Virus record (IMG/VR): IMGVR_UViG_3300026551_000002
Origin: an uncultured virus (IMG/VR IMGVR_UViG_3300026551_000002)
Taxonomy: Duplodnaviria > Heunggongvirae > Uroviricota > Caudoviricetes
Reading direction: 5' to 3' (one strand)
Length of the DNA: 20,000 nt
Under the pieces are notes generated by a model that saw only the letters and a list, made by a program, of their open reading frames with translations, was not told where the DNA came from and did not search any database. Of the stretch, positions 2,031 through 16,766 are shown piece by piece; the stretch's first letter is position 1, and each line of letters begins with the position of its first letter. The position numbers and the translations under genes are program-made.

Positions 2031-2070
2031 TCAAGGCAGTTTAGAAAGTATATGCAAAGGAGATTTTACT

Positions 2071-2463
2071 GTGAAGTGGAAACTAAGGCGGATAGTAGAT
2101 AAAGCTGCTCTCATCCTCGTAAGTGTTAAGCCTATTCGATGGTTCTTTGATCAACTCATCAAGTTTGGAAATTGGGCAAGTAAAAACCCATTCCTGTCTA
2201 CAATCTGGAAATGGTATATCAAGATAGAAAGACCAGCTTGGATTAGTTACCTTACGTATTCTCTAGTTGCTGATGCTTGGTATCACAACATATGGTGCAT
2301 ACTCATTGATATTGCTTGTCTTCTTGTCATGATTTTCTTACCTAATATCGACAATCATGACAATGATGAAGACAATGAGCCAGATGAACCTGATCCAACA
2401 CCTAACGGAGATGCAGTTGATTTATGGATTCGAGAACAACAAAAATTGACTTTACCCAAATGA
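2071..2463 (+). CDS. membrane protein with acidic C-terminal tail (moron-like)
   Basis: RBS AAAGGAG, GTG start, hydrophobic segment IWCILIDIACLLVMIFLP, tail DNDEDNEPDEPDP; own promoter and terminator. Confidence 0.7.
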   Translation: MKWKLRRIVDKAALILVSVKPIRWFFDQLIKFGNWASKNPFLSTIWKWYIKIERPAWISYLTYSLVADAWYHNIWCILIDIACLLVMIFLPNIDNHDNDEDNEPDEPDPTPNGDAVDLWIREQQKLTLPK

Positions 2464-2511
2464 CAAGGTAGACTTGAAACTACTACCTCAAATGTCATTG
2501 GGAAACTGCAC

Positions 2512-2549
2512 AAAAAAACACCTTGGTGCTCACATCACCAAGGTGTTTT
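2512..2549. terminator. bidirectional intrinsic terminator
   Basis: AAAACACCTTGGTG / CACCAAGGTGTTTT stem between convergent genes. Confidence 0.8.
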
Positions 2550-2564
2550 GATATTTTAACATCT

Positions 2565-2798
2565 CTACAATACTGCTTTCTCCATTGCACCAACCACTAG
2601 TTGAGCAGTCTCCTCCTCACCCACAAGCTCTTTAAGAGCACTTCCAATCTGTCCCATACGTTCCATACGAGCCGTGATGAATTGATGCTGAGTAGTTCCC
2701 TGAGCCAAGCCTGTGAGTGCCCACTGAGCGGCCTGTGTCTCGGCGTCAAACTGAGCCATGAGAAAAGCAACTTCAGATTGATTGGACTGATTCGACAT
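2565..2798 (-). CDS. small conserved-looking hypothetical protein
   Basis: RBS AGGAGG; SEVAFL...HQFITARMERMG pattern. Confidence 0.7.
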   Translation of the reverse strand: MSNQSNQSEVAFLMAQFDAETQAAQWALTGLAQGTTQHQFITARMERMGQIGSALKELVGEEETAQLVVGAMEKAVL

Positions 2799-2811
2799 TA
2801 TGCCCTCCTGC

Positions 2812-3024
2812 CTACAACTCTTCGGATAGAAAAGATATAGGTTTTAGTGCGTCGCTAATAATCTGCTTCCGTTGCTCTGTAAATGGCAATAATGTATAAA
2901 AGAAAAATGCATTGCCATCAAATGACACATCATCATCTTTTATGCCATCAACATTATCACGTATCCAGCGTTTAGCCCTAGAACATTTACCTGGACCAGA
3001 AAAGAACAATGAATGCTTGAACAT
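2812..3024 (-). CDS. hypothetical protein
   Basis: Start revised to ATG 3024 (RBS GGGAG) to avoid overlap with the transglycosylase gene. Confidence 0.6.
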   Translation of the reverse strand: MFKHSLFFSGPGKCSRAKRWIRDNVDGIKDDDVSFDGNAFFFYTLLPFTEQRKQIISDALKPISFLSEEL

Positions 3025-3025
3025 A

Positions 3026-3517
3026 TCATTCTCCCATAATGATAGCGATATACGCCCGTGTTTCACTTGGAATATGGCCTTTCCAATTAACACCATATTC
3101 ATCTATCACACTATTTGTACGTTCATAACCATAATTATACGCACTAAGAGCCTTGGCATAGTCTCCATACTTTTGATAATACCGAGACATCAATTGGGAT
3201 GCACCTGCCAAAGATTGTACTGGATTCCAGGGATCGATGCCAAGTCCCGAAGCCGTATCGGGCATTATTTGCGCAATACCAATAGCTCCTGCATGTGACT
3301 CTGCATTTGGATTAAATCCTGACTCCTCATTAATCTGAGCTACAAAGTAGTCAGGAGGGATGCCAGCATTCACAGCATCTTGCCTTGCCATACTACGGTA
3401 GTCAGTATCACTTTGTTGAGCAGAGGCAAATGGATTGCCACCCTGAGCTTCGATATACGCACAAGCAAGTGCAAGACCGATGAGGCACATAACGAAAAAA
3501 GTTGCTGCTTCCTTCAT
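3026..3517 (-). CDS. lytic transglycosylase (SLT domain) with N-terminal signal/anchor
   Basis: EESGFNPNAES catalytic motif, GAIGIAQIMP, AYNYG, ETRAY. ATG 3517 overlaps the upstream stop; hydrophobic N-terminus. Confidence 0.9.
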   Translation of the reverse strand: MKEAATFFVMCLIGLALACAYIEAQGGNPFASAQQSDTDYRSMARQDAVNAGIPPDYFVAQINEESGFNPNAESHAGAIGIAQIMPDTASGLGIDPWNPVQSLAGASQLMSRYYQKYGDYAKALSAYNYGYERTNSVIDEYGVNWKGHIPSETRAYIAIIMGE

Positions 3518-3702
3518 GGCTTCACCACCGCTACATGAGCACCTGCCCACATAAACCACAGCACGACGCCGACGATGATAAACACAACGAGGTGGAGCAG
3601 ATCTTTTCGCACTGAGCCAGGGCCACGACTGCTACCCCACTGGGTGCCGAAATAGCCAAAGGCCACGATAATAATGATGAGGATTATTGTCCCTGTAGAC
3701 AT
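3514..3702 (-). CDS. small two-TM membrane protein
   Basis: RBS TAAGGAG, two hydrophobic segments, coupled to SLT. Confidence 0.75.
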   Translation of the reverse strand: MSTGTIILIIIIVAFGYFGTQWGSSRGPGSVRKDLLHLVVFIIVGVVLWFMWAGAHVAVVKP

Positions 3703-3844
3703 AGGTATCTCCTTAGTGCAAAGGAGTCCTAGTCAACTCTGATAAAATGGAGACAGCTAGGACTCCGGTTTTAGTGATGGGCTAGTGGCAGAAGTTTTGG
3801 TCGGCCTATGCCACTAGCGAGCACGATGATATGGCGTATCCTTT

Positions 3845-3916
3845 CTACGCAAGAAAGCGAATAGCTACTATGCAGAGCACAATTGCAAGAGCTACGAATA
3901 GAAATCCTTCAAGCAT
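3845..3916 (-). CDS. 23-aa single-TM peptide MLEGFLFVALAIVLCIVAIRFLA
   Basis: RBS AAAGGAG; manual translation, below ORF-track cutoff. Confidence 0.6.
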   Translation of the reverse strand: MLEGFLFVALAIVLCIVAIRFLA

Positions 3917-3937
3917 GTGCTATCTCCTTTCTAGCGA

Positions 3938-4090
3938 CTACGACTTATCAAATACTGTTACAATTGTTGCCAGCACACCTATAGTAAGTGTTACTATCGC
4001 GCAAATGCCTATAGTAGGTCCTACCAGATGATAGTAGGCCAATACTATGAAAAACATTGATAGTATCATGCCTATTATGCCTATTTTCAC
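3938..4090 (-). CDS. 50-aa two-TM peptide MKIGIIGMILSMFFIVLAYYHLVGPTIGICAIVTLTIGVLATIVTVFDKS
   Basis: RBS AAAGGAG, GTG start; manual translation. Confidence 0.65.
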   Translation of the reverse strand: MKIGIIGMILSMFFIVLAYYHLVGPTIGICAIVTLTIGVLATIVTVFDKS

Positions 4091-4102
4091 ACTATCTCCT
4101 TT

Positions 4103-4269
4103 TTAACTCTTGAATATGAGTAGTACCACACTAAGCAGGAATACTACAATAGCAACTGCATGGTATACCTACAAACATGTATTTTTCCTTTCAGCGAACA
4201 AGTAAATTGTATGGCACAAACAAGAATAGCGCTGTATATAATGATAAGAAAGATTGTCCCTATAGACAT
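4103..4269 (-). pseudogene. frameshifted paralog of 3514-3702 (two-TM peptide)
   Basis: Same RBS/start (MSIGTIFLIII). Frame stops at 4144, but another frame encodes VYHAVAIVVFLLSVVLLIFKS* ending at 4103. Confidence 0.5.
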
Positions 4270-4286
4270 AGGTATCTCCTTAGTGC

Positions 4287-4320
4287 AAAAAATGCCTACA
4301 GATGTAAAAACCTGTAGGCA
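4287..4320 (-). terminator. intrinsic terminator/attenuator after the HTH gene
   Basis: TGCCTACAG/CTGTAGGCA stem followed by T6 on minus strand. Confidence 0.65.
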
Positions 4321-4344
4321 CACTAATCTAAATACGATACTACA

Positions 4345-4533
4345 TCACACTAACACAGCAGTAGATACTAAAAGCGCATCCAGTGTCTCATGCCGAATCC
4401 GATAAGCTTGACGCTTTCCTACATGAGGAAGAGCCATCGCTTCTAATACTCCATTCTTGATCCATCTGCGCACAGTCGTATCATCAACTCGAAGCTGTTT
4501 GGCAACCTCACGAACAGTCAAAAGCTCACTCAT
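4345..4533 (-). CDS. excisionase-like (HTH_17/MerR-like) DNA-binding protein
   Basis: LLTVREVAKQLRVDDTTVRRWIKNGVL; RBS GAAAGGAG before ATG 4533. Confidence 0.85.
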   Translation of the reverse strand: MSELLTVREVAKQLRVDDTTVRRWIKNGVLEAMALPHVGKRQAYRIRHETLDALLVSTAVLV

Positions 4534-4628
4534 AGAAACTACTCCTTTCAAACTATCTGAAACTACAATAACATTTACGAATACTACCACAAATGCATGC
4601 AACTGCACAATACTACATTGACAAAGTA

Positions 4629-4838
4629 CTAAAAGCCATTCCATCTACGACGCTTTGTGCTTCCCTTTTGAGCACGTGTCTCTCTCATTTGTTCGTTAAT
4701 TCTTTCATGATACGCACTGTTAGGGATATTCAATTCAGGTGGTGAATCTTTACTTAAACAACTGGCACAAGCAATATAATCACCACCTTTTGCTAGCCCA
4801 ACACCTACAGGCTTACCACATACTCTACATCTAATCAT
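4629..4838 (-). CDS. small Zn-ribbon protein
   Basis: CRVC...CASC; start revised to ATG 4838 (GGAG RBS). Confidence 0.6.
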   Translation of the reverse strand: MIRCRVCGKPVGVGLAKGGDYIACASCLSKDSPPELNIPNSAYHERINEQMRETRAQKGSTKRRRWNGF

Positions 4839-4855
4839 AATGCAGCTCCAAAGTA

Positions 4856-5143
4856 CTACTGAGTACAAGAATGTCTCTGAAAGTCAGAAACCATTCTCTC
4901 ACAATCAGGACACTTGACATCAGTAATGTCACAAATCCCCAAGATAGCCATTGTCTGTGGATCATTCAGATGTTCTCGCAACTGCCTAGCCTCATCTGGA
5001 GAAAGTGTGATCTCCTTGTGAGCACCAAAGCCAGTATTTAAAGCAATGGTCAATTCTCCATGCCTAAAAGCACACACATCAATTGTGTTTGTATCTTGGC
5101 TAATTGAAGCTGAGTACTCAAAATCGTTGGATGTGATCTGCAT
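4856..5143 (-). CDS. hypothetical protein with C-terminal CPDC...HSC
   Basis: RBS TAAGGAG before ATG 5143. Confidence 0.65.
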   Translation of the reverse strand: MQITSNDFEYSASISQDTNTIDVCAFRHGELTIALNTGFGAHKEITLSPDEARQLREHLNDPQTMAILGICDITDVKCPDCERMVSDFQRHSCTQ

Positions 5144-5147
5144 GATA

Positions 5148-5324
5148 TTACTCCTTATTAAATCTAGAAGGGACACGAATTTGTGTAGCAGGTTTGATGT
5201 TTGTCATCTTTCCTGCACACTTTACACAAAAGTACAATTTTTGATATGTTGAGAGCAGAATGTATTGACGTGTGTCATGTCTGGTTTGTTTGCATCCAGA
5301 ACAATAATAACGTTGTGCTGACAT
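5148..5324 (-). CDS. 58-aa Zn-ribbon protein (MSAQRYYCSGC...FCVKC...)
   Basis: RBS AAAGGA; manual translation; fills the operon gap exactly. Confidence 0.65.
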   Translation of the reverse strand: MSAQRYYCSGCKQTRHDTRQYILLSTYQKLYFCVKCAGKMTNIKPATQIRVPSRFNKE

Positions 5325-5327
5325 CTA

Positions 5328-5603
5328 TTATCCTTTCATACACTCAGGACAACTACAAAAACGAGAATTAGGATTGTGCTCTATTGGCTTAGAAGGATTC
5401 CAAACATCATTCCATCCTTTGATGAAAAGCTTTTGTACTTGGATAGAACGCGTCTCACTTTGAGCTTTTATTCTTCCTTGACGTTCATACTCCTCTCTTG
5501 GAAGGAAATACAAACCTTTCATAAGATCATGCAAACCCCTTTGCATGCGCTGATACGCTTGCCCTTCAGCACGGCCTTTAGCCTCTGCATTCTTCTGATT
5601 CAC
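5328..5603 (-). CDS. hypothetical protein with C-terminal H..CSCPEC
   Basis: RBS AGGAGGTG, ATGA overlap with upstream gene. Confidence 0.7.
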   Translation of the reverse strand: MNQKNAEAKGRAEGQAYQRMQRGLHDLMKGLYFLPREEYERQGRIKAQSETRSIQVQKLFIKGWNDVWNPSKPIEHNPNSRFCSCPECMKG

Positions 5604-5785
5604 TCACTCACCTCCTGAGCCATTAAACAAATCTCAGACACATCTGTTTGATAGGATACAATTCGAATAGCTGAAAGTGCATCTTTCGCTTGAATGATGC
5701 CATGAACTATCTTGTTCTCAAGTTTCTTGTTCAAATGCACATCTCTCACCGTTGCATACATCTGTGTAACTTTGTACTTTTTCAT
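5600..5785 (-). CDS. hypothetical protein, paralog of 1649-1855
   Basis: Start revised to ATG 5785 (MKKYKVTQMY). Confidence 0.65.
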   Translation of the reverse strand: MKKYKVTQMYATVRDVHLNKKLENKIVHGIIQAKDALSAIRIVSYQTDVSEICLMAQEVSE

Positions 5786-6028
5786 GATAAATACTTCTTT
5801 ATCTTCTTGCAATCTGAGATTGCATGTACTCTACTGACAACTCTTTACCTGTTTCACTATCAATGATTTTTGATCCTGCCTGAGACTCTTTAATTAAATC
5901 ATCCCAGAAAAGCATTCCATAACCTAACCCGTAATTATCCACATCATAGATATCCCCACTATTCCACCAACCAACACGAATAACCTTTTTCTTGTATTCA
6001 TGATAAATACTCCTTTCAGAGTCGCTGA

Positions 6029-6496
6029 CTAGGCGACTCTTCTACTTGGCAAGTTACTAAGAAAGCTTGCCGTGTACGCACTACGATAGTCTAATTTTAT
6101 AATCTTAGGAGCAACAATTTGAGGAGCAGATGTTTTACTTTCAAAGTGTCTGACGCTTTCAGTAGTACTAATCTGCTCCGCAATTGCAACCTCTCCGGTA
6201 GAGAGCACTTCTTCAGCTTCAAGAATAGCTTGCTTGACTTGCTTTTCCTGAGCTTTAACGATGTTGGTTTTATAAATACGAGCATAAAATGCATTTACAA
6301 TTTCCGTATGAGCACATGTCCCTTTGTGCTGATGGTGAGAACAGCGACAATGTGTCGCAACAGGAACTATACCTGACTCATCGACACGAACACGAAACCA
6401 ATCGCTTGCATATCCAGGAACATCCACATACAAACCTTTGCTATCTTCTGAAATTTCAAGAAAGTTCATTGCGTACATTGCATAAGTTACTGCCAT
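6029..6496 (-). CDS. SWIM zinc-finger protein
   Basis: CRC...CAH motif; RBS AAAGGAG; first gene of the leftward operon. Confidence 0.75.
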   Translation of the reverse strand: MAVTYAMYAMNFLEISEDSKGLYVDVPGYASDWFRVRVDESGIVPVATHCRCSHHQHKGTCAHTEIVNAFYARIYKTNIVKAQEKQVKQAILEAEEVLSTGEVAIAEQISTTESVRHFESKTSAPQIVAPKIIKLDYRSAYTASFLSNLPSRRVA

Positions 6497-6690
6497 GGTA
6501 TTTTCTCCTTTTGTGTTTTTGAACTACTTTAAATATGTTTTTTTGCAACTTCCTTTGCCCTAAGCATCTCCGCGTCTCGTACGTTTTTCATCGGGACATG
6601 TCTACCGAAGTAACCAGTGTGTCGAAATCTAGAGTGAAAGTTCGCTATTCTCGATGCCCCTCGTCTCTGTATCCTCAACCTCACATACAC

Positions 6691-6719
6691 ATTATGCCAT
6701 ACATCATGCACTTTGTCAA
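6691..6719 (-). promoter_or_regulatory. leftward early promoter
   Basis: TTGACA-17 bp-CATAAT with TGn. Confidence 0.75.
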
Positions 6720-6777
6720 GGGGTTTGCCAAGCAGTTTATCACGAATATAACATAGAAATAAAAACTGATAAAAACC

Positions 6778-6806
6778 TTGACTTCTAGCCTGATAGGAAG
6801 TACACT
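6778..6806 (+). promoter_or_regulatory. rightward promoter for the XRE gene
   Basis: TTGACT-17 bp-TACACT. Confidence 0.7.
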
Positions 6807-6842
6807 TAGAATTAAGTTTCTAAGAAAGGAGAAACAAGGCTC

Positions 6843-7106
6843 ATGCCCACACTGAGAAGTCTACGAGAAGAAAATTACATCAGCAGAAAAAAACTAGCTT
6901 TACTGTCTGGTGTATCTGACTCTACTATCGTCCGAATAGAAGAGGGCAAAACCCATACCAATGAGGAAACTGCAATAAAAGTAGTAGAAGCCCTTGGTAA
7001 GGCAATAGGGCAAAATCTCACCATAGAAAATATTGAAGGATTGAAGCTCTATAACGCTATGAGGGATCGTAAACAAAAACCCAAAGAAGATAATCCGGCA
7101 GCATAG
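6843..7106 (+). CDS. XRE/Cro-family HTH regulator
   Basis: LRSLREENYISRKKLALLSGVSDSTIVRIEEG; RBS AGAAAGGAG. Confidence 0.9.
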   Translation: MPTLRSLREENYISRKKLALLSGVSDSTIVRIEEGKTHTNEETAIKVVEALGKAIGQNLTIENIEGLKLYNAMRDRKQKPKEDNPAA

Positions 7107-7306
7107 CCCTGGCTGGCGATGCCAACAAGAAAAACTGCATACACATCGCCAGCCATAGCCTTGCCCAATATTCTACCAGAATACATGCTCCAAAACTAGT
7201 CCCTAATCTTTCCCCATGCAAGGGGTTATGGAGGGGCATTTTGTTTGGGCAAAGTTGGTGGATAGTTGTGGGCAATCACCAAATTGTGTTAATAGTACTG
7301 GTTAGT

Positions 7307-7335
7307 TTGCAACTTGACTCATACTGTGTTATAAT
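7307..7335 (+). promoter_or_regulatory. promoter for the arc-dinD unit
   Basis: TTGCAA-17 bp-TATAAT with TGn. Confidence 0.75.
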
Positions 7336-7353
7336 AATGTCAGGAGGTTAAAA

Positions 7354-7548
7354 ATGGATCAAAGCAAAATCCTTCGCCGATCCTCTATTAATTTTCCAAG
7401 TGACATAGAGGAAGTTCTCAAAGAGAGAGCTGAAGTTAATAGACGCTCTCTCACAAAAGAAGTTGTATGGATTGTTGAACAGTTCCTTAAACAGGAACAA
7501 CAAAAAGAAGCTGTTGCAACAGCTTCTTTGAAAGGTGAAAATGTCTAA
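7354..7548 (+). CDS. Arc-family ribbon-helix-helix regulator
   Basis: SINFPSDIEEVLKERAEVNRRSLTKEVVWIVE; RBS AGGAGG. Confidence 0.85.
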   Translation: MDQSKILRRSSINFPSDIEEVLKERAEVNRRSLTKEVVWIVEQFLKQEQQKEAVATASLKGENV

Positions 7549-8338
7549 CAACTACAGTCAGCATCAGTCTACCACAGCCCTAGCAGTTTTCCAAGCATTG
7601 CCCTTTGATGCTATCCGTCTCTTTGATGAGCAAGGCAATGAATACTGGTCAGCTCGTGACCTTCAGGAATTGCTTGGATACCTAACATGGGAAAGATTTG
7701 AAGACGCTCTCGAACGAGCATCAATAGCCTGTAACAATAGCGGAGAAGAGCCTTCAGGTCATTTCGTCAACGCCGCGAAGCCAATAATTTCAGGAAAAGG
7801 AAGAGAGCAAGATATTAAAGACTACCATCTTACTCGTTATGCCTGTTACCTTACAGCACTAAACGGCGATCCTCGTAAACCAGAAATATCGGCTGCTCAA
7901 ACTTACTTTGTAATGAGAACAAGAGAGGCAGAGCAGAAACAACTCACACTGCAAAGGAGTACATTCATCCGTGCTTTGTGTGATCCGCAAGAATTGCGTC
8001 AAGCAATCGTATCTCATGAAGGAAAGATACAAGGACTAAAAGGCGACGTTCAAATCTTGGAGAAAGAGGCAACCTTGCTCCAAATGAATGAAGAATTTCT
8101 CTATCCTGAGCAAGCTACACCAAGAAAAATGAGTAGTGATCCAATTGAGCAAGCAATTTATGAGTACCTTTCAACTAAGAAAGTACAACTTATGGCTAGC
8201 CAACTACGATCATGTTACACCATTAAGGACATGCCTACTGTGTACATAGCCCGAATTTGTATGCATATGGTAAAGAATGGACTCTTGCAAAAGATAGATC
8301 CTATCCATCCACAAACCGCTTGTAGATTTTTCGTGTAG
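7541..8338 (+). CDS. DinD/Bro-N-domain protein (antirepressor-like)
   Basis: YWSARDLQELLGY, DYHLTRYACYL, NGDPRKPEISAAQTYF; C-terminus unrecognised. Confidence 0.8.
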   Translation: MSNNYSQHQSTTALAVFQALPFDAIRLFDEQGNEYWSARDLQELLGYLTWERFEDALERASIACNNSGEEPSGHFVNAAKPIISGKGREQDIKDYHLTRYACYLTALNGDPRKPEISAAQTYFVMRTREAEQKQLTLQRSTFIRALCDPQELRQAIVSHEGKIQGLKGDVQILEKEATLLQMNEEFLYPEQATPRKMSSDPIEQAIYEYLSTKKVQLMASQLRSCYTIKDMPTVYIARICMHMVKNGLLQKIDPIHPQTACRFFV

Positions 8339-8365
8339 TTTACCGGAGCCAATAAAACATCAGTC

Positions 8366-8396
8366 AAGGGACCTGGAAGGAGACGGGTCCCTTTTT
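8366..8396 (+). terminator. intrinsic terminator
   Basis: AAGGGACC/GGTCCCTT stem plus T-tract. Confidence 0.7.
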
Positions 8397-8459
8397 GTTG
8401 CCATCAAAGTTACACAAGGTATTCCCCTCGCAAGGTGGTATGCAAACTATCCTATACCG

Positions 8460-8488
8460 TTGACAACTGAACAATAATATTCTAAAAT
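8460..8488 (+). promoter_or_regulatory. promoter for HNH-1
   Basis: TTGACA-17 bp-TAAAAT. Confidence 0.75.
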
Positions 8489-8531
8489 GTTCGATACTAT
8501 TTACAGCTTCCAACGAACAAGGGATAGAGCC

Positions 8532-9398
8532 ATGACTGAAGACATTCCAATGAAGAAATGCACAGGACCATGTGGGCAAGAGTATCCTGCTACTTCTGAG
8601 TACTTCAACTCTGATAAAAACGGAAAATATAAACTAAAAGCTAGATGTAGAGAATGTTTAAGTACTTACAGCAAAGAACGTAACAAACGTCCAGAAATAA
8701 AACTAAGAGCACAAGAACGTGAAAAAATACGCACAAGACAATATAAAAGCAATTTAGAGCGCAGATCAAAACAAGCTGCACGTAAAAAAGAACGTTACCA
8801 TAACGATACAGAATATCGAACACGAAAACTTGCCATAGATAAAGCTTATCATAATCGTCCTGAAGTGAAAGAACGAAAACATGCTTATAATCAAGAATAT
8901 GGCAAAGAATACCGCAAACGCCCAGAAGCACGAGAAAAACGTCGAACTAGAGACAATGCAAGAAACCATCGTCCAGATATACGCGCAAAAAGATTAATCA
9001 AATTTCAAGAATACCGTAACCGTCCAGAAATACAAGAACGCAGACGTGCCTACAAAAAATATTACAACAAACGCCCAGAAGTACAATTAATGAGCCGTAC
9101 TTATAATCATACCAAACGTGCCCTTAACAGATCAGTCAAAGGTACCCATACCCATGAACAAATCCAAGAAAAGCTTAAAAAGCAAAAGCACAAGTGCTAC
9201 TACTGCAAAGCTCGACTTAGAAAAATCAAAGGTAGATACATTTACCACATTGAACACACCTTCCCACTCAGCCGCGTAGTAGGGACCGATATACCAGCCA
9301 ATAGCATTGACTACCTCGTGCTCTCATGCCCTACTTGCAACCTCAGTAAAGGCGATAAGTTCCCTTGGGAATGGGCAGAAGGTGGAAGACTCTTATAA
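8532..9398 (+). CDS. free-standing HNH endonuclease 1 (Zn ribbon + 17-aa repeats + HNH)
   Basis: CTGPC..CREC; CYYC, HIEHTFPLSR, CPTCNLSKG. Start revised to 8532 from paralog alignment and promoter position. Confidence 0.9.
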   Translation: MTEDIPMKKCTGPCGQEYPATSEYFNSDKNGKYKLKARCRECLSTYSKERNKRPEIKLRAQEREKIRTRQYKSNLERRSKQAARKKERYHNDTEYRTRKLAIDKAYHNRPEVKERKHAYNQEYGKEYRKRPEAREKRRTRDNARNHRPDIRAKRLIKFQEYRNRPEIQERRRAYKKYYNKRPEVQLMSRTYNHTKRALNRSVKGTHTHEQIQEKLKKQKHKCYYCKARLRKIKGRYIYHIEHTFPLSRVVGTDIPANSIDYLVLSCPTCNLSKGDKFPWEWAEGGRLL

Positions 9399-9522
9399 AT
9401 ATTAAGCCAAGTTACACAAGACATCATTGCCCAATGGTTGTGCTTTTCCCTATTGACGTGCGAGTTACAATAAATGCATTAAAACGTGTAGTTTTTATAC
9501 AAGATTTGAAAGGATTTCAAGC

Positions 9523-10053
9523 ATGAAACAACAATTTATGCTCCTCTTTGGATTGATCATTCTTACAGGAACAATTCTGGCTTGCGGAGAGAGTAACACA
9601 GGCACAACTGCTAACAATACTGGTAGCAGCACTACAACAAACGCTAGTAACAAACCAACTCAGCACTTCAAGATAGGTGATACTGTCAACGTCGGCTCTA
9701 TCTGGCAAATTGTCGTAAGCAACGTCCGAACAGTACCACCGGGCCAATTTGACACACTCAAGTCTGGAGATGCCTACACAGGCATTGATGTCACCTTTAA
9801 GAACATCTCCAACAAAGAAGAGAGCCTTTATGGAGATGCTGATTGGACTCTGAAGGATACATCAGGACAAAAATACAATAATGCCTATGTCTCTGATTTC
9901 CCCAATGCTCCAGAGGGCAAAGTAGAACCTGGTGATCCTGCCAAGGGATCACTCATTTTTGAAGTACCGAGCACTACTAAACAATTTACGCTGGCATTTG
10001 AAAATAACTCTTTCACTTCAGGCCAAACCATATGGGATTTATCTACATCTTGA
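9523..10053 (+). CDS. DUF4352-like lipoprotein
   Basis: Signal peptide with lipobox ILAC, T/N/S-rich linker, FKIGDTV, LKDTSGQKY, GKVEPGDPAKGSLIFEVP. Confidence 0.8.
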   Translation: MKQQFMLLFGLIILTGTILACGESNTGTTANNTGSSTTTNASNKPTQHFKIGDTVNVGSIWQIVVSNVRTVPPGQFDTLKSGDAYTGIDVTFKNISNKEESLYGDADWTLKDTSGQKYNNAYVSDFPNAPEGKVEPGDPAKGSLIFEVPSTTKQFTLAFENNSFTSGQTIWDLSTS

Positions 10054-10102
10054 CATCTCTGCTATACTGGAAACCGCATGATGGTACCGACTCAAGAGGA
10101 AA

Positions 10103-10144
10103 CAAAAAAGAGCCCTTACTGGCAAGAACGGGGGCTCTTTTTTG
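10103..10144. terminator. bidirectional terminator hairpin
   Basis: CAAAAAAGAGCCC/GGGCTCTTTTTTG. Confidence 0.75.
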
Positions 10145-10223
10145 TGGGAACTTTCATTCAATTCATGGGAATATTTGCCCAATTTGTGAGAAATGAAAGC
10201 TCTATTTGGGAACATGCCCAATG

Positions 10224-10266
10224 AAAAAAGAGCAACTGGACTCTGGCAAACAGTTGCTCTTTTTTT
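10224..10266. terminator. bidirectional terminator hairpin
   Basis: AAAAAAGAGCAACTG/CAGTTGCTCTTTTTT. Confidence 0.75.
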
Positions 10267-10318
10267 GCTTCTCAAGAAAGGAGACAATAGCCATGAGCAG
10301 TATAGCACACTTTCAAAA

Positions 10319-10381
10319 CTAATCTTGATACTTCTTTGCCTGTTGACTCCACAAATAAGGCCAATACTTCTTTGATGCCTT
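10319..10381 (-). pseudogene. orphan 3'-end remnant of the 11558-11857 gene
   Basis: Encodes KASKKYWPYLWSQQAKKYQD* versus EASKRYWPYLWSQQVKRYRD. Confidence 0.85.
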
Positions 10382-10382
10382 G

Positions 10383-10553
10383 CTACTCTTTTGCTGACAA
10401 TGCCTTTACGCGATCTTCTTCAGTGTAATATCTACGATTAGAAGCTTTCCGCTTAGCTTTAAGTATGCCCAACCTATCCCAACGCTGCAAAGTCTTTACT
10501 GAAACCCCCACAAGCTTAGCAAACTCAGTTGCATTGTATATTTTTTCTTCCAT
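10383..10553 (-). CDS. 56-aa MerR-like HTH (IS607 TnpA N-terminal-like), probably leaderless
   Basis: MEEKIYNATEFAKLVGVSVKTLQRWDRLGILKAKRKASNRRYYTEED; TAGACA-17-TAGTAT promoter ends 6 nt before the ATG. Confidence 0.8.
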   Translation of the reverse strand: MEEKIYNATEFAKLVGVSVKTLQRWDRLGILKAKRKASNRRYYTEEDRVKALSAKE

Positions 10554-10643
10554 ACACACATACTAACACCCTTGCACACTTCTGTCTAGATGTGCTATAA
10601 TCACTTATGAACACTTATACACACAAATAAAAGGACAAAAATC

Positions 10644-11537
10644 ATGAGTGATATTCCAATAAAGAAATGCACCGGCGCGTGTGGACAAGAGTATCCTGCT
10701 ACTATTGAATACTGGCATCGCAAAAATGGAGGTAAATATGGATTTTGTGCCAAGTGTAAAGCATGCGTAAACGAAGAAAAAGCAAATCAATATAGCGATC
10801 CAGAAAAACGCAATAAAGTACTAAAAATCAATAAAAATAGCTACCATAAACCTGATGTACATGAACGTATTCTTGCTCAAAAGAAAGAATACAGTAGTCA
10901 ACCAGAAGTGAAAACACATAGAGAAACTTATAACAAAGAATACTACACAAACAACAAAGAATATATTCAAAATCAACATAAAGGATATTATAATCTTCCT
11001 GAAATAAAAGAACACAGAAAAAACCAAAGTAAAAAATATCTAAATAGACCAGATATACGTGAGCATAAACAAAATTACCGCAAAACATATATGAATCGAC
11101 CAGGAATGAAAGCACATAGAAAAGCTTACATTGAAAAATACTATAATCGGCCAGGAATGAAAGAACGCAAGAAAGCTTATATGCAAAAATATCTTAAAGA
11201 ATACATGCTTAGACCTGGAATACGTGAACGTATGTATGCTATTGGACACGCCTACCGTGCTCGTAAAAAATCTATTAAAGGCACGCATACCCCACAACAA
11301 ATTCAAGATCAACTAAAACGACAAAAGCATAAATGCTACTATTGTCAGAAAAAATTCAATAAAATTAAAGGTCAATCACAATATCATATTGAACATACAT
11401 TCCCTATTTCTCGTGTTGCTGGTACTGACATCCCTGCCAATAGTATTGAATATCTAGTATTAGCATGCCCTACATGCAACACAAGTAAAGGAAACAAATT
11501 TCCTTGGGAATGGCCTCAAGGCGGAAGATTATTGTAA
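10644..11537 (+). CDS. free-standing HNH endonuclease 2 (paralog of HNH-1)
   Basis: Same N-terminal Zn ribbon and near-identical C-terminal HNH domain; promoter TTGCAC-18-TATAAT at 10572-10601. Confidence 0.9.
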   Translation: MSDIPIKKCTGACGQEYPATIEYWHRKNGGKYGFCAKCKACVNEEKANQYSDPEKRNKVLKINKNSYHKPDVHERILAQKKEYSSQPEVKTHRETYNKEYYTNNKEYIQNQHKGYYNLPEIKEHRKNQSKKYLNRPDIREHKQNYRKTYMNRPGMKAHRKAYIEKYYNRPGMKERKKAYMQKYLKEYMLRPGIRERMYAIGHAYRARKKSIKGTHTPQQIQDQLKRQKHKCYYCQKKFNKIKGQSQYHIEHTFPISRVAGTDIPANSIEYLVLACPTCNTSKGNKFPWEWPQGGRLL

Positions 11538-11557
11538 TCAACCTTAAAACATGACTT

Positions 11558-11857
11558 CTAAAACTGAGAGTCCCTATATCTTTTTACTTGTTGTGACCAC
11601 AGATAAGGCCAATATCGCTTACTGGCTTCCGTGAGATACACAGAATTAACCTCCATATCTTCGATACTCTGTGGAAATACCCTCCAGTGTGATTTCTTGG
11701 CACCTTTGGTTACAGGTTCTGGCATATGAGCTTGTACCCAACCATTTTTAATCCAATGCCTCACAGTCTTCATGCTCACATGATAAATCTCACTTACCTG
11801 ACGTACCGTGTAATAATCCTTTTGTACACGGATGTTATTTAACGTGATGTGTTGCAT
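11558..11857 (-). CDS. excisionase-like HTH protein with C-terminal extension
   Basis: YYTVRQVSEIYHVSMKTVRHWIKNGWV; RBS AGAAAGGA. Confidence 0.8.
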   Translation of the reverse strand: MQHITLNNIRVQKDYYTVRQVSEIYHVSMKTVRHWIKNGWVQAHMPEPVTKGAKKSHWRVFPQSIEDMEVNSVYLTEASKRYWPYLWSQQVKRYRDSQF

Positions 11858-12139
11858 ACATATGAATGTCCTTTCTGTAAAATATGATGGCTCCCTGGTG
11901 GTAGTGAGAGTGTCAAATTAACCAGGAAGCCAAACTAAGGAGACTAATCCTTTGCAAAGGTATGAATAGTATAGCATGGGTTGCAAACTACTCTATATCG
12001 CAATGAGAAGGTCAACAGATAGCTTTGCCCTATCATAACACCCCAAAGAAAAGCACATCTCCCAGGCCAATAAAAGAGATGTGCTTTACCATCCGTACCC
12101 TACTTGCAAAGATTATAGCATCCCCATGCAAACCTAACA

Positions 12140-12604
12140 CTACTCTACATAATCCGCAAGTGCTCTGATAAGATCAGGATTTTCTTTCATATTCCCCAAT
12201 GCAGTGTTACAAGTTTTGCACAAAAGACCTCTTACCATTCCTGTACTATGGCAATGGTCAACTGCCAATGCTCGTATTTTACCTTTTTGTTTTGCGGTTT
12301 CTGGTTGTTTGCATACTGCGCATAATCCATTTTGTTTCGCAAACATACAATCATATTGCTCAATAGTAATTCCATACTTTTTACGCAACTTTTGTTTACG
12401 TCTTTGTTTTGAATTATCTTTTTTACTATAATTTTCTCTACGAAAATCATTTACGCACTTCTTGCATTTATAATATAAACCATCTTTAGTAATACCACTA
12501 TGGTAAAAATAATCAAAAGTAGCATCAAGCATACGCCCACAAGGACCTGTACATTTCTTCAAAATGGGATTGCTGTCTTGAGAGGAAAATGATAAAGTAT
12601 TCAC
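12140..12604 (-). CDS. endonuclease VII-family (T4 gp49-like) free-standing nuclease
   Basis: KYGITIEQY..M...Q.G.CAVC, LAVDHCH, VRGLLCKTCNTALG; RBS AGGAG before GTG 12604. Confidence 0.9.
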   Translation of the reverse strand: MNTLSFSSQDSNPILKKCTGPCGRMLDATFDYFYHSGITKDGLYYKCKKCVNDFRRENYSKKDNSKQRRKQKLRKKYGITIEQYDCMFAKQNGLCAVCKQPETAKQKGKIRALAVDHCHSTGMVRGLLCKTCNTALGNMKENPDLIRALADYVE

Positions 12605-12681
12605 GATACATCTCCTAAGCTGATGTGTCCACGCCTCCGGTTGTTTCAGCAACGCGGGGGCAAAACCATATTTATGAGATT

Positions 12682-12710
12682 ATTATACCACACTATAGAG
12701 CAGTTTGCAA
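12682..12710 (-). promoter_or_regulatory. promoter for the EndoVII gene
   Basis: TTGCAA-17 bp-TATAAT with TGn on minus strand. Confidence 0.7.
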
Positions 12711-12744
12711 CAATATCATTCATACTAAAACCTTCTCAATACTA

Positions 12745-12773
12745 TTGACAACTGACCATAACTAATCTATACT
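12745..12773 (+). promoter_or_regulatory. promoter of the replication operon
   Basis: TTGACA-17 bp-TATACT. Confidence 0.8.
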
Positions 12774-12812
12774 ACAAATAACAGTTATAACAGTTCATAG
12801 AAAGGATGGCCA

Positions 12813-12983
12813 ATGAACACTCAAATCTCAAAACCGGAACCTCCAGTTGTGCAGTCAATCCGGTTCCCTCGTGACCTTTGGAATGAACTTCAAAAAAAAG
12901 CAGGTGAAGGATCATTCAATAAAATTGTTATTCGTGTACTCCAAGCCCAAATTGAACAAGAGAAAAAGGAAAAAGCATCATGA
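12813..12983 (+). CDS. 56-aa ribbon-helix-helix protein
   Basis: MNTQISKPEPPVVQSIRFPRDLWNELQKKAGEGSFNKIVIRVL; RBS AGAAAGGA; ATGA overlap with next gene. Confidence 0.75.
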   Translation: MNTQISKPEPPVVQSIRFPRDLWNELQKKAGEGSFNKIVIRVLQAQIEQEKKEKAS

Positions 12984-13297
12984 CGAAACAGTGGGGAGAT
13001 CTCACTCTTCTAGAGCAAAGAAAGCGTGAACTTTTAGCCAGTGAAGGAATTGTTTGTGGACAATGCGGTAAATCTGTCTCTTCGATAGTCTACTGGTGTG
13101 ATGATTGCCAGAAACAACACGAGCAAGAATGTGAAACTGATATCCATGAAAATCGTTCTTATGACGAAAATGGAGAAGAACACATTCAACTCATCAAAAA
13201 TGATACAGGTGAACTTCTAGACGAATTCACAACCGTATCACTCCACGATGATCCTACATCAGAACAATTACAAGCAATGCTTGATTGGGCAAATTAA
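12980..13297 (+). CDS. acidic Zn-ribbon protein
   Basis: CGQC...CDDC, acidic C-terminus. Confidence 0.65.
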   Translation: MTKQWGDLTLLEQRKRELLASEGIVCGQCGKSVSSIVYWCDDCQKQHEQECETDIHENRSYDENGEEHIQLIKNDTGELLDEFTTVSLHDDPTSEQLQAMLDWAN

Positions 13298-13317: not shown

Positions 13318-14928
13318 ATGCTCAAAACAGTTTTTCAACCATCCACATATCAAAGGGCAATCTTCCAAGCTGTAAAAGATGGAGAAAAATCCCTAGTAAT
13401 CACCGCTTGCCCTGGCAGTGGCAAAACAACTACCATTCAACAGATCATACGTTACATTCCTGCCAATGCAACTGTACTCATGGTAGCATTTAATGTCGAA
13501 GCATCTAGGCAACTTCAATCAAAAGTTGATGATATCTCAAGAGCAATGCATGATGAAAACATGGCTACACCTCTGGTGAATTGCTCAACTATCCACAGCC
13601 TTGGCAACCAAACAATTAGCTCTGCTGGCATTCGCGGACAAGCCAAAGGTTATAAGTATTCAAAAATTGCTAAAGAATACCTTCAATCGCAAGGTGTCTT
13701 TGACAAGAATACTCCCCAAGATCTTACAGATTTATGCGACAAAGTACGCTTGACACTTTCCTCATTTCAAAAGCCAGATGGAGAAATCGATGAAGCTGTT
13801 CTGCAAAACCTTTGTGATCGATTTGAAATTGAGTTTGACGAGAAATACAAACAAATTTGCTTCAATGCGGTTCCAAAGATCTTGAAAGTCGGTATTGATC
13901 AAGCCCGCATAGGAAACATCGACTTCACAGATATGATTTGGCTTCCTGCAATTTTAGAATTGCAACCACGCCGATATGACCATGTTCTAGTAGACGAGGC
14001 ACAAGATCTAAATCCTGCACAACTTGCACTGGTATTAAAAGCCAGAAAACCAAATGGAAGATTTATAGCAGTGGGAGATGTCAATCAAGCCATATATGGC
14101 TTTGCAGGAGCATCTCTTGAAAGCATTCAAGAAATTATTGAAGCAACAGATGCCAATACACTGCCTCTCTCAATCTGCTATCGTTGCCCAACATCGGCTA
14201 TCCAGAAGGCAGCATCAATCTATTCAGGGATTGAAGCCGCGCCCAATATGCCCAAAGGGGAAATCAGAACAATTTTAGACAAAGACATAACAGATTTAGC
14301 ACGGCCAGGTGACTTGATCCTTAGTCGCTGCACAGCACCACTAGTAAGCCTTTGTCTTGAACTTCTTCGAGATGGCAAACGTGCCACGATACGTGGGCGT
14401 GATTTGGGCAAGTCTCTCGGCAAAGCAATTGATCAAATCAAAAAATATTGGCAACAAGTCCAATACGGTCAACTTAGTATTGATGATTTGCCAATAGCAA
14501 CAGGGATGTTTCTTAGTGCCCAACTAGACTCCCTGCAAGGGGATGGTCATGAAATGAAGCGTGCAAACTTGCAAGATAAGATTGACACGCTCTTATGTCT
14601 TCTAAGTCACTACACAGCTAACCATACCCACAAAAGCCTTGAAGGGTTCCAAGAATACATCATCAATTTTTTTGAAGAGGATAAAAATGCCCAGATCATC
14701 CTTGCAACTGGACATAGAGCCAAAGGGCTAGAATATCCTCGCGTATTCATTGTTAGCTCTAACAAGCAACCTCATCCTCTTGCAAAAACATCTGAAGCAA
14801 TCACACAAGAGTATAACCTAATGTACGTCATGTACACCAGGGTACTCTATCAAGCACACACCAATGGAAGCGGCACACTATTCCTAGGAATTGACGAAAA
14901 CTTCCAAAGAATAGAAGAATCATACTAA
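13318..14928 (+). CDS. UvrD/Rep-like superfamily 1 helicase
   Basis: ACPGSGKTT, VDEAQD, GDVNQAIYGFAGA, YRCP, TGHRAKGLEY, YVMYTR. Confidence 0.92.
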   Translation: MLKTVFQPSTYQRAIFQAVKDGEKSLVITACPGSGKTTTIQQIIRYIPANATVLMVAFNVEASRQLQSKVDDISRAMHDENMATPLVNCSTIHSLGNQTISSAGIRGQAKGYKYSKIAKEYLQSQGVFDKNTPQDLTDLCDKVRLTLSSFQKPDGEIDEAVLQNLCDRFEIEFDEKYKQICFNAVPKILKVGIDQARIGNIDFTDMIWLPAILELQPRRYDHVLVDEAQDLNPAQLALVLKARKPNGRFIAVGDVNQAIYGFAGASLESIQEIIEATDANTLPLSICYRCPTSAIQKAASIYSGIEAAPNMPKGEIRTILDKDITDLARPGDLILSRCTAPLVSLCLELLRDGKRATIRGRDLGKSLGKAIDQIKKYWQQVQYGQLSIDDLPIATGMFLSAQLDSLQGDGHEMKRANLQDKIDTLLCLLSHYTANHTHKSLEGFQEYIINFFEEDKNAQIILATGHRAKGLEYPRVFIVSSNKQPHPLAKTSEAITQEYNLMYVMYTRVLYQAHTNGSGTLFLGIDENFQRIEESY

Positions 14929-14932
14929 AAAT

Positions 14933-14976
14933 AGAGGCTAGCGTTAATCCTAGTAAAATTGTTGCTAGCCTCTTTT
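14933..14976 (+). terminator. intrinsic terminator
   Basis: AGAGGCTAGC/GCTAGCCTCT stem plus T-tract, long loop. Confidence 0.6.
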
Positions 14977-15041
14977 GTCACCACAACTTACACGTAGTAT
15001 ATCACATTAGTGCTAAAACTATCAACACATAGGAAATGTAG

Positions 15042-16766
15042 ATGAAACCCATGGCAGAAGAAGATAATTTGGTAGATTACAGCATATTAGCACATGATTA
15101 TATTTACGAATACCTCTTCAAAGCAAAAGTTATGGAGAATGGGCATCGACCTCCAACATTTGGAGAGTACGAATCTGCCATTAAACAATACGAAGGACAC
15201 ATAACAGAAAAACATGCTCCCGCTAAAAGAATGATTGAAAACATTAAAGCTGACATACGATTGGCTGACCTCATAGACGATGAAGATGAAAAGCCTGAAA
15301 CATGTCCTGAACTGCCAGAACATATTCGCATACCACAACACATTAAAGATGCATTTGCTCAAAGTGATACCTATCGCCTTATGCTATCCTATATCGATTT
15401 TAGTCGTAAAAGTTCACCACGCGGCTATAAAGATTATCATCCATTTTGCTTTCTCTGGTTACTCTCAACAATTGCAGCACGCCGTATCTATTTTCAGTTT
15501 GGACGCAAGAAAGTTTACACCAACTTACGTATAGCACTCTGCGGAGGATCAACCGGAGTCAAAAAATCGTTTACTGCTGAAGTTGCTATCTCACTCCTGC
15601 GAGAAGAACTAGGACTCTCCTATTTACTTATTGAAACAGAAGACATGACCCCTGAAGCTCTTATTATGAAAATGGTTGGTAAACGTGCAATTCCAGATGA
15701 TTATAAAGGATCATCAGATGAGCGAACAGATAAAATAAAAGAGCGTCTTGCATGGTCTGCTCAAAAATCCATGTATTGGGACGAGTTTGGTATGTTCTTA
15801 CGTAAAATATCAAAGGAAACAGGTTCATACACAGGATGGATAGATATCCTGCTCAAAGTAGAGGAATGTAAACCGATTACTAAAAGTACTGCTGGAAGGG
15901 GTGATGAAATTGTTGAGAAACCTTACTTACCATTCCTGGGAAATATAGTAGCTGCTTCAGTTGCCAAGATCACAAAGAAAGAAAGTGACTTACAAGTCAA
16001 TGGACTCATGCCAAGACAAATAACTATCTGCACGCCAGATGGTGAAAAGAGCGATGATCGAACAAAAGTAGCATACTTTCCAGGGCCTCCAGAACTTGTT
16101 GCATCACTTCTCCAGTGGCATGATACATTAGGTCAACCAATAGCTGATATCATTGACGAAAATGAAAACACTCAATCACCTGACTCAAAAAAACCATACA
16201 TATCTAATTGGACTGGAGTACTTATAGAAGAGTTACCAGAACATCAATGTAAATGGACTGAGCAAGCCGAGACAAGGTGGTATGAATACGGCTATGCTCT
16301 GGAAGAACTAGCAAGCATCAAAGGCTTCCCAGAGGACCTAGCAACACAGTACAGTGGACGACTAACCACCATCACACTCCGAATAGCTATGCTCTTTGCC
16401 AGCATCGATAATCGATATGGGAGACCAGAAGACACGATTATCACTGACCTCCATATGGCAATAGCACAAGAGCTTACTGAGATAGCACGTCAAGGCTCTC
16501 ACCGCTTCTATGAACAAGTTAATGGATTTAAGACACTCCAGTCAAAAATGGAAAGTGAAATAGTCGCACTTCTCAAAACAGTTGCATCAAAAGCAAAAAC
16601 AGAAGCAAAGGCATGGATAACCGTTGCTCAAATACGTAGTCGCTTAAACGAAAAGTACGGAACAGATGAAATCAAGAAAGCTCTCAAGCCACTGGAGGGA
16701 ACTGTAGTTGATTATCAAACAATCAATCGACCTAAATCAAAGGGAGCATACCGGATAAGAACATAA
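15042..16766 (+). CDS. DUF3987/YfjI-like P-loop ATPase (putative replicative helicase/origin-binding protein)
   Basis: NLRIALCGGSTGVKKS Walker A-like, MTPEAL, YWDEF Walker B, NGLMPR, LRIAMLF; probable C-terminal winged helix. Confidence 0.75.
   Translation: MKPMAEEDNLVDYSILAHDYIYEYLFKAKVMENGHRPPTFGEYESAIKQYEGHITEKHAPAKRMIENIKADIRLADLIDDEDEKPETCPELPEHIRIPQHIKDAFAQSDTYRLMLSYIDFSRKSSPRGYKDYHPFCFLWLLSTIAARRIYFQFGRKKVYTNLRIALCGGSTGVKKSFTAEVAISLLREELGLSYLLIETEDMTPEALIMKMVGKRAIPDDYKGSSDERTDKIKERLAWSAQKSMYWDEFGMFLRKISKETGSYTGWIDILLKVEECKPITKSTAGRGDEIVEKPYLPFLGNIVAASVAKITKKESDLQVNGLMPRQITICTPDGEKSDDRTKVAYFPGPPELVASLLQWHDTLGQPIADIIDENENTQSPDSKKPYISNWTGVLIEELPEHQCKWTEQAETRWYEYGYALEELASIKGFPEDLATQYSGRLTTITLRIAMLFASIDNRYGRPEDTIITDLHMAIAQELTEIARQGSHRFYEQVNGFKTLQSKMESEIVALLKTVASKAKTEAKAWITVAQIRSRLNEKYGTDEIKKALKPLEGTVVDYQTINRPKSKGAYRIRT

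Follow-up and report, generated by a model that had tools for sequence, protein, structure and literature searches.

A duplicated gene end on either side of a phage HNH endonuclease gene: a possible homing-type cassette with a replacement 3' end

Why should the last codons of one small phage gene occur twice, once in frame at the end of the gene and once more beyond an endonuclease gene that lies between the two copies? This question is raised by a stretch of 20,000 nucleotides from an uncultured virus of the Caudoviricetes (IMG/VR record IMGVR_UViG_3300026551_000002), which we refer to as the window and which protein family searches of its open reading frames (ORFs) identify as a phage or prophage-like region. 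The gene in question, HTH99, encodes a small helix-turn-helix (HTH) protein; the endonuclease gene, HNH-2, lies beside it on the opposite strand, followed by a second small HTH gene, MerR58, and by the second copy of the gene end, which we call the orphan tail. The reading that we favor, with a probability of roughly 0.55, is that of a homing-type cassette in the design of the WHO elements of yeast and the mORF gene hybrids of fungal mitochondria, because the layout of the locus is that of these elements.

The end of HTH99 is present twice

The features on which the argument turns are the following.
11857-11558, minus strand: HTH99, the target gene, an ORF of 99 amino acids
11558..11632, minus strand: the tail in use, codons T75-F99 plus the stop codon, in frame with HTH99
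10644-11537, plus strand: HNH-2, a free-standing protein of 297 amino acids with a Cys-rich N-terminal module, 17-residue basic repeats and a C-terminal HNH domain
10559-10383, minus strand: MerR58, a complete stand-alone MerR-type HTH protein of 58 amino acids
10381-10319, minus strand: the orphan tail, 21 codons reading KASKKYWPYLWSQQAKKYQD*, directly after the TAG of MerR58

Along the minus strand the order is HTH99, a spacer of 20 bases, the convergent stop codon of HNH-2, a control region, MerR58 and the orphan tail. The proximal tail copy completes HTH99 in frame, and both copies flank the endonuclease gene. The C-terminus of HTH99 reads ...TEASKRYWPYLWSQQVKRYRDSQF* / ...EASKRYWPYLWSQQVKRYRDSQF* (the asterisk marks the stop codon); the end quoted in a preliminary description of this DNA, made from the sequence alone, is present, although the true end is three codons longer. 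At 15 of the 20 aligned codons the two tails have the same residue, encoded by identical codons in 8 cases. In a codon-by-codon alignment, 38 of 60 bases (63%) are identical, with a longest identical run of 12 bases (counted by eye), so that the tails resemble each other much more closely at the protein level than at the DNA level.

When the two 2.5-kb flanks of HNH-2 were compared with each other by tblastx, the tails matched with an E-value of 3.9e-9. A tblastn search with the orphan tail against the window and a comparison genome (G000, an assembly of 156 contigs and 1.58 Mb) returned two sites only, the orphan itself (E 2.7e-16) and HTH99 (E 1.5e-8); the next match had an E-value of 0.21, and no third tail copy was found in either. 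Because the E-values of both searches are significant, chance similarity of the tails can be rejected, and the duplication of the end of HTH99 as a downstream orphan, as first described, is borne out. The ORF list and Pfam likewise agree with the description in placing only HNH-2 and a MerR-like HTH gene between the copies.

The same description had the protein conserved and its DNA recoded. The conservation holds, with the 15 of 20 shared residues and with both serine codon-class swaps (AGT/TCA and TCA/AGT) confirmed; the term "recoded" overstates the case, as the synonymous sites between the two copies are merely saturated. Saturation is expected for functional alleles that have long been separated and needs no selection for difference; thus, the tails are better called long diverged. 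The frame of the orphan tail is +1 relative to MerR58 and, counted from the stop that precedes the tail in that frame, lacks a start codon. No terminator belongs to the tail in use: the stop codon of HNH-2 comes 20 bases past that of HTH99. The GC content of the cassette is 0.352 vs 0.401 for the window; the GC content of the two tails is uninformative, the stretches being too short.

Both tails fit the native C-terminus of the HTH99 family

HTH99 matches the Pfam model HTH_17 with 29.8 bits (cut-off, 27). A HMMER search against 1.84 billion representatives returned 42 proteins at E <= 0.001, 8 of them at E <= 1e-10. From these we built an alignment (A1) of the query with 12 single-stretch homologs of about 100 residues; 29 multi-domain, multi-stretch or HTH-only hits were left out. 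Most of the 12 homologs have a C-terminal motif of the type ..AS.RYW.., for example ASMRYWPMLLAKMRS or ESKRYWMRLYVKLGMKKR, at the position of the tail, and W83 is nearly invariant. Because most homologs have this motif there, we regard the tail as the family's native C-terminus, which both copies fit.

In an AlphaFold2 model of HTH99 (alignment of 13 rows; mean predicted local distance difference test score, 79.8), a winged HTH precedes three helices (62-70, 72-80 and 83-98). The duplicated part begins within helix 72-80 and takes in the last helix. Since the tail forms the end of the one helix and all of the other, the model indicates that HTH99 without it would lose structured parts and that the gene needs its tail. 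In a Foldseek search of PDB with the model there was nothing at E <= 0.001; the best fold match is weak (the Xis protein of phage Pukovnik, E 5.5e-3), and further weak matches are to a P2 DNA-binding protein, BldC, RacA and MerR proteins. On the strength of the model, HTH99 appears to be a small winged-helix DNA-binding protein of the Xis/MerR-like kind, and we claim no closer identity for it.

A second locus has the same junction

A degenerate DNA pattern for the tail residues YWPYLWSQQ gave no match in viral contigs, none in genome contigs and one in metagenome contigs. The single match, locus L004, is a metagenome contig of 1,403 bases that contains the same HNH gene, HTH gene and orphan tail with the same junction as the window. 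Its HNH protein has 297 residues, 74.4% of them identical to HNH-2 (dN/dS, the ratio of nonsynonymous to synonymous substitution rates, 0.21), and its MerR58 homolog is 87.5% identical in amino acids (dN/dS 0.12). These ratios argue that both genes are kept functional by purifying selection. The orphan tail of L004 reads ASKKYWPYLWSQQMKKYP* and follows the TAA TAA of the MerR58 homolog directly, in frame.

At the DNA level, window and L004 are 78-82% identical over HNH-2, 85% over MerR58, 75% over the orphan tail (including a 9-base indel) and 83% over the next 23 bases, which hold the motif TGCTATACT. Identity is 48% over the following 96 bases and 25% beyond, and the similarity collapses beyond about position 10298. 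Of 17 codons compared between the orphan tails of the two loci, 4 are different: 3 by synonymous changes, which include a serine class switch, and 1 by a non-synonymous change. Although neither orphan tail is translatable, mostly synonymous differences would be expected if each had been a functional gene end until the cassette arrived, and the counts fit this expectation marginally. As described for the WHO elements, the model proposed for them also expects such differences where the orphan is the former functional end of the recipient (PMC7282813).

Homologs of HTH99 without the cassette

More distant relatives of HTH99 lie at loci that have no cassette. A search for loci by a four-sequence alignment gave four, one of which (L097) we examined; the others (L098-L100) match the HTH part only. 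L097 belongs to a complete phage record of 109 kb with terminal repeats, which also holds a relative of HNH-2. Its homolog of HTH99 has 96 residues, is 43-45% identical and ends SRRYWMRLYVKMKK*; a hairpin terminator lies 22 bases past it, followed by convergent genes. In the whole record there are this one homolog and a weak HTH-only match elsewhere, and MerR58 is absent. At another locus (L104), a homolog of 99 residues has TGCTATACT upstream of its start codon and a GmrSD_N gene after it. Both homologs, 40-45% identical to HTH99, match neither version of the tail. A word-based protein search with HTH99 found only HTH99 itself (1 of 1 candidate), a search among shorter proteins found no relatives, and blastn of 10200-12700 against GenBank phages gave no match.

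Two further observations concern L097. Upstream of its HTH99 homolog, a TnpB-like protein of 563 residues with a Cas12f1-like TNB domain is encoded at 1637-3328. Immediately past the homolog's stop codon, at 4268-4290, lies a degenerate look-alike of the orphan tail with indels and a score of 28, a score reached by 1 of 5,000 shuffles and by none of 7,148 background windows. We do not count it as evidence of an orphan-type relic: elsewhere in L097, at an unrelated site, a control query reaches 31, which leaves the look-alike unproven and its score within chance.

The region past the orphan tail

Two features lie just past the orphan tail.
10299..10307, minus strand: TGCTATACT, an extended -10-like motif just past the orphan tail, in the last stretch conserved with L004
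10224..10265: a hairpin with a perfect 15-bp stem and flanking A and T runs (inverted repeat I5), about 50 bases past the orphan tail

By its sequence the hairpin appears terminator-like. Orphan tail and then terminator is the layout that L097 has for gene and then terminator, and it fits the orphan as the older native end.

The motif TGCTATACT has four exact copies in the window, one of them upstream of HTH99 (11968-11976). It forms part of a unit of about 30 bases that occurs in three diverged copies on the minus strand (12112-12146, 11968-12003 and 10299-10329) and that consists of TAG, a T-rich stretch, TTGCA or TTGAA, and TGCTATA(A/C)T. The copies lie at the stop codon of an endonuclease VII (EndoVII) gene, upstream of HTH99 and at the stop codon of the orphan tail; possibly they are phage promoters that also mark the borders of modules. 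Convergent TGCTATACT motifs at 10060-10068 (plus) and 10299-10307 (minus) are each directed toward a perfect hairpin that has a U-run (10102-10145 and 10224-10265), so that 10060-10307 may give two small convergent transcripts. The architecture is the same in L004, with different hairpin sequences. An ORF of 48 residues with a hydrophobic stretch (10078-10224, plus strand) passes through one of the hairpins, and Rfam has no match in 9000-13000.

MerR58 is a complete small protein

MerR58 matches the Pfam models PF00376 (MerR; 46 bits, cut-off 28.2) and PF13411 (42.7 bits, cut-off 21.6), covering only positions 1-42 of the 69 of the MerR_1 profile. Its eight closest relatives, which include the window's own protein, are 74-100% identical and 56-71 residues long. 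Either they stop where MerR58 does (..ALSAKK, ..ALSNKK, ..ALSNEK) or they carry short, unrelated extensions, and none of the eight continues into a YWP tail. The orphan tail could have been the C-terminus of MerR58 itself, frameshifted by one extra A in a run. We rejected this candidate, as the relatives stop at the same place and L004 has TAA TAA there; MerR58 is complete, and thus the orphan is not its C-terminus.

MerR-family regulators have a C-terminal dimerization helix and an effector-binding domain. MerR58, with its 58 residues, is an HTH-only protein without the effector half of true MerR regulators, and the label of a MerR regulator therefore overstates the evidence. Its distant relatives are mostly the N-terminal domain of proteins that combine a MerR-type HTH with a resolvase: frames of at least 200 codons are found at 65 of 80 viral loci, and the resolvase domain (PF00239) is present in all four of the longer viral relatives tested. 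PF00239 is absent from MerR58, which therefore does not qualify as part of an IS607-type transposase. Across the 80 viral loci, neither an HNH-2-type gene nor the tail lies nearby. A degenerate pattern for the N-terminus of MerR58 gave no match in viral contigs and, in genome contigs, one chance match inside an unrelated gene of 611 residues.

MerR58 and HNH-2 diverge from a short region with two promoter-like sites.
10560..10643: the divergent control region, 84 bases between HNH-2 and MerR58
10573-10601, plus strand: promoter-like site, TGCACA-17-TATAAT
10588-10560, minus strand: promoter-like site, TAGACA-17-TAGTAT

The control region is the best-conserved segment between window and L004 (79 of 84 bases, 94%). 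The two sites overlap; they are consensus matches only, and the scan gave fewer sites in the region than in shuffled sequences. From its position and the 94% conserved region, MerR58 may regulate the cassette; here only the placement of the sites is suggestive.

HNH-2 and its relatives

HNH-2 matches the Pfam family HNH (PF01844) with 31.0 bits (cut-off, 21.4) over residues 231-285 and the entire profile (1-47 of 47). It also matches PHROG 1035, annotated as endonuclease VII (E 3.8e-14). HNH genes of this type number exactly three in G000, and no two have the same flanks. HNH-1, whose Pfam HNH score is 22.2 bits, is 46% identical to HNH-2, and the paralogs range from 42 to 46%. The third, on contig C120, is flanked by terminase-like and portal-like genes, labels that we took from context. 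The HNH paralogs and EndoVII (8487-9398, 10644-11537 and 12140-12652; C120, ~14118-15164) have the N-terminal Cys-rich module (..KKCTGPCG..) in common. HNH-2 contains internal repeats of 51 nucleotides. In the HNH paralogs, several 17-residue basic repeats with this 51-base period lie between the Cys-rich module and the catalytic domain and are perhaps a modular DNA-reading region.

The three HNH genes and the EndoVII gene occupy unrelated contexts, and HNH relatives in 11 viral loci have still other neighbors. Flank-against-flank tblastx revealed no protein-level duplication around HNH-1 or around 10 of these 11 viral loci, the flank of the remaining one (L009) being too short for the comparison. 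In one complete viral record of 109 kb (L005), a direct DNA repeat of 66 bases (3542-3607 and 4808-4873, intergenic) brackets an HNH-2 relative of 44% identity together with an ORF of 93 residues without a Pfam match; this suggests that the cassette in L005 duplicated a regulatory stretch rather than a gene end.

Comparison with known systems

Integrative elements such as e14 and phage 21, which insert at the icd gene of E. coli, bring a replacement 3' end of their target gene. The window has in common with them a diverged duplicate 3' end and a gene that is completed by the element's copy. They differ in having a site-specific recombinase and an identical core site, whereas no recombinase is encoded between the two copies here, and 12 bases is the longest run that the copies have in common.

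Free-standing elements of the T4 type generally lie in the gaps between genes, and point differences in the target protect the genome that carries them. The Seg and Mob proteins of T4 (PMC2988022), mobE (PMC2790892) and F-CphI (PMC6083498) are free-standing phage homing endonucleases with intronless homing, and their genes spread by double-strand-break repair with co-conversion of flanking DNA. The present locus resembles them in having a free-standing nuclease gene beside or within a phage gene. The string "duplicat" does not occur in the available text of the T4 mobile-element review (PMC2988022), and among open-access papers and bioRxiv we found no phage paper on a duplicated replacement gene end beside a homing endonuclease.

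Closer counterparts come from eukaryotes. The WHO elements at the yeast aldolase gene FBA1 (Coughlan et al. 2020) are described as an endonuclease gene with a resistant replacement 3' end upstream of it; the former 3' end is left downstream, need not stay open and is proposed to be a homology arm for repair (PMC7282813). On this description the window and the WHO elements agree in having an endonuclease, an apparent replacement 3' end that is strongly diverged (there, from the sensitive alleles) and a downstream copy that would be the displaced end. On the other hand, WHO elements reside in a eukaryotic nucleus and home at meiosis, whereas the cassette here is in a phage; their nuclease, derived from an intein, is a LAGLIDADG-zinc-finger protein and not of the HNH type; and they have no separate HTH gene in the place of MerR58. 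Clusters of successive relics are described at FBA1, compared with one relic in the window. Allele-specific cleavage has been demonstrated for WHO, whereas for HNH-2 it is a prediction.

In fungal mitochondria, gene hybrids made by mobile endonuclease ORFs (mORFs) are reported for atp6 of Allomyces macrogynus and for atp6, atp9, cox2 and nad3 of Glomus sp. (Beaudet et al. 2013, PMC3630166), and C-terminal duplications of cob and atp6 are reported in Endoconidiophora (PMC6279837). In the cases described, a foreign C-terminus is followed by an endonuclease ORF and then, about 1 kb downstream, by the native C-terminus, a layout like that of the window. The degree of divergence is also similar: the two ends of Glomus atp6 are 63.5% identical in bases and 91% in residues (PMC3630166), compared with 63% and 75% for the window tails. 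In contrast to the phage HNH cassette, these hybrids are found in organellar genomes with LAGLIDADG or GIY-YIG nucleases, and the mORF is usually on the same strand as the gene and often in phase with it, whereas HNH-2 is on the strand opposite to HTH99. For the mORFs, moreover, the native end was proven through close cassette-free relatives.

Interpretation and rival explanations

Taken as a homing-type cassette, the unit would consist of the replacement 3' end, the convergent HNH gene and the small MerR-type HTH gene. It would sit inside the last 24 codons of HTH99, with the replacement tail keeping the gene whole and the old tail and its terminator staying downstream as an untranslated relic. 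The tail in use (11558..11632) would be the copy imported with the cassette, a direction that we infer, and the orphan would be the native end, now displaced, which may also serve as a homology arm. HNH-2 would cut cassette-free alleles near the insertion point, and in a co-infection repair on the cassette-bearing genome would copy the cassette, with the 5' part of HTH99 and the orphan tail as homology arms. The insertion together with the diverged tail would destroy the target site, and MerR58 would act at the common promoter region, limiting the expression of HNH-2. A mobile unit of new 3' end, HNH gene and regulator had been proposed in the preliminary description. The duplication, the complete MerR58, the L004 junction and the published design speak for such a unit, as do the purifying selection on both cassette genes, the terminator past the orphan, the higher AT content of the cassette and the unrelated contexts of the HNH paralogs; the regulator's role follows from its position. 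A bolder version, which we offer tentatively and would not bet on, is that phages of soil bacteria carry a self-contained "home-and-rescue" unit (an HNH nuclease, its own HTH repressor on a divergent promoter and a resistant end) that homes repeatedly into diverged alleles of an Xis-like gene and strands each recipient's end as the next homology arm, making it the counterpart of WHO in prokaryotic viruses.

Several results weigh against the homing-type cassette. No close cassette-free allele was found in the collections searched, and the direction of import is thus only an inference: there is no HTH99 relative above about 50% identity among 5.8 billion clusters, no match to HTH99 in 100 related genomes, and no joint skipping the cassette in the contigs of four soil-metagenome runs, although absence cannot be proven from contigs. 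The L004 contig stops 9 bases beyond the end of its HNH gene, so that any upstream gene with a replacement tail lies outside it, and because L004 has one common junction with the window, both may descend from a single insertion. The 3:1 synonymous bias between the orphan tails is marginal (about p 0.05 by our own binomial estimate), and, judged from the sequences, the divergence of the window's two tails looks like ordinary saturation, with no evidence of design. As to the nuclease, no close characterized homing endonuclease was found among GenBank phages, in which the closest relatives of HNH-2 reach at most 39% identity over the catalytic domain, and PDB has no sequence match. One paralog, that on C120, lies between terminase and portal, and therefore the HNH-2 family is not necessarily a homing family; in the literature available to us, this position is typical of packaging-associated HNH proteins (PMC12724721).

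Some of these results would suit an ordinary phage mosaic joint, in which one homologous and one illegitimate crossover with a related phage exchanged most of a resident homolog for a block holding HNH-2, MerR58 and all or part of HTH99. The resident's last 21 codons would have stayed behind, HNH-2 would be a passenger without a part in causing the event, and nothing would have been designed for repair or immunity. The tails would then be anciently diverged functional alleles, as their 63% base identity and saturation suggest, a pattern that shows horizontal origin and not its cause; the SAKE/SAKK vs ASKK codons at the end of MerR58 and the start of the tail are possible microhomology; the three promoter-like repeat copies bound local modules; and repeated mobility is not evidenced by two loci with one common junction. 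Even so, we consider this explanation rather unlikely, as HTH99 was kept exactly in frame at a mid-helix position, the inserted block contains precisely an endonuclease gene, the same layout recurs in published homing elements and the orphan tails differ mostly by synonymous changes. The divergence of the copies would also fit old paralogs, had the orphan been the remnant of a second, tandem copy of HTH99 that lost its first three quarters, by deletion or overwriting, on the arrival of HNH-2 and MerR58; MerR58 and the orphan are indeed collinear with HTH99 (HTH first, tail last), and BLAST joins both pieces. This history is improbable, given the single copy at this place in both cassette-free relatives (L097 and L104) and the lack of any other tail copy in the genome. 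We give still less credence to the orphan having been retained for a function of its own, either translated from MerR58 by recoding or serving as a DNA site (an operator or recombination site). Its ASKKYWPYLWSQQ core is unchanged between window and L004, and the L097 look-alike behind the stop codon of the homolog, with its score of 28 and 1 of 5,000 shuffles, might be read in this sense. However, the orphan reads at +1 behind the TAG of MerR58 in the window but in phase with the HTH gene in L004, where TAA TAA separates the two, a start codon is lacking at both loci, the look-alike contains indels and is outscored by the control query (31) in the same locus, and a role as homology arm under the WHO model belongs to the homing-type cassette and not to this explanation.

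If the homing-type cassette is real, a design of yeast nuclei and fungal mitochondria would also operate in bacteriophages, and a selfish nuclease would bring a resistant spare part for the gene that it breaks. It would explain orphan gene ends that annotators otherwise ignore or miscall, and the different histories of the two halves of one small phage gene. A nuclease accompanied by a small DNA-binding protein of its own and by a highly conserved control region could also show how elements of this kind keep their toxicity in check.

Other features of the window and its assembly

Besides the genes discussed above, the window encodes RusA, a lytic transglycosylase, a Bro-N protein, a DUF3987 protein, a UvrD-type helicase and a tyrosine integrase; its nucleases comprise two paralogous HNH endonucleases and one endonuclease VII. 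In G000, positions 1-12008 correspond to the start of contig C10, which covers the whole cassette region, and the sequence from about 12072 onward corresponds to contig C120. The region is present in four soil-metagenome runs from three studies, which may be its source samples; Logan contigs from these runs match the window exactly over 9500-11315 and 11363-12008, and their breaks fall inside HNH-2, where the paralogs have common sequence. At 1.58 Mb, G000 is larger than the listed relatives in its family (0.5-0.9 Mb); because of this difference C10 and C120, the phage contigs, may have been binned wrongly, which makes the host uncertain.

The population is apparently heterogeneous where the EndoVII gene adjoins HTH99 (11979-12130). 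A bridging contig of 123 bases (11979-12101) has a depth of 27.8 vs 44-49 for its neighbors (X1) and of 11.5 vs 35-41 (X3); X3 and X4 contigs diverge from the window sequence after 12130, and the contigs of G000 also break there. The EndoVII gene may thus be a second variable insertion.

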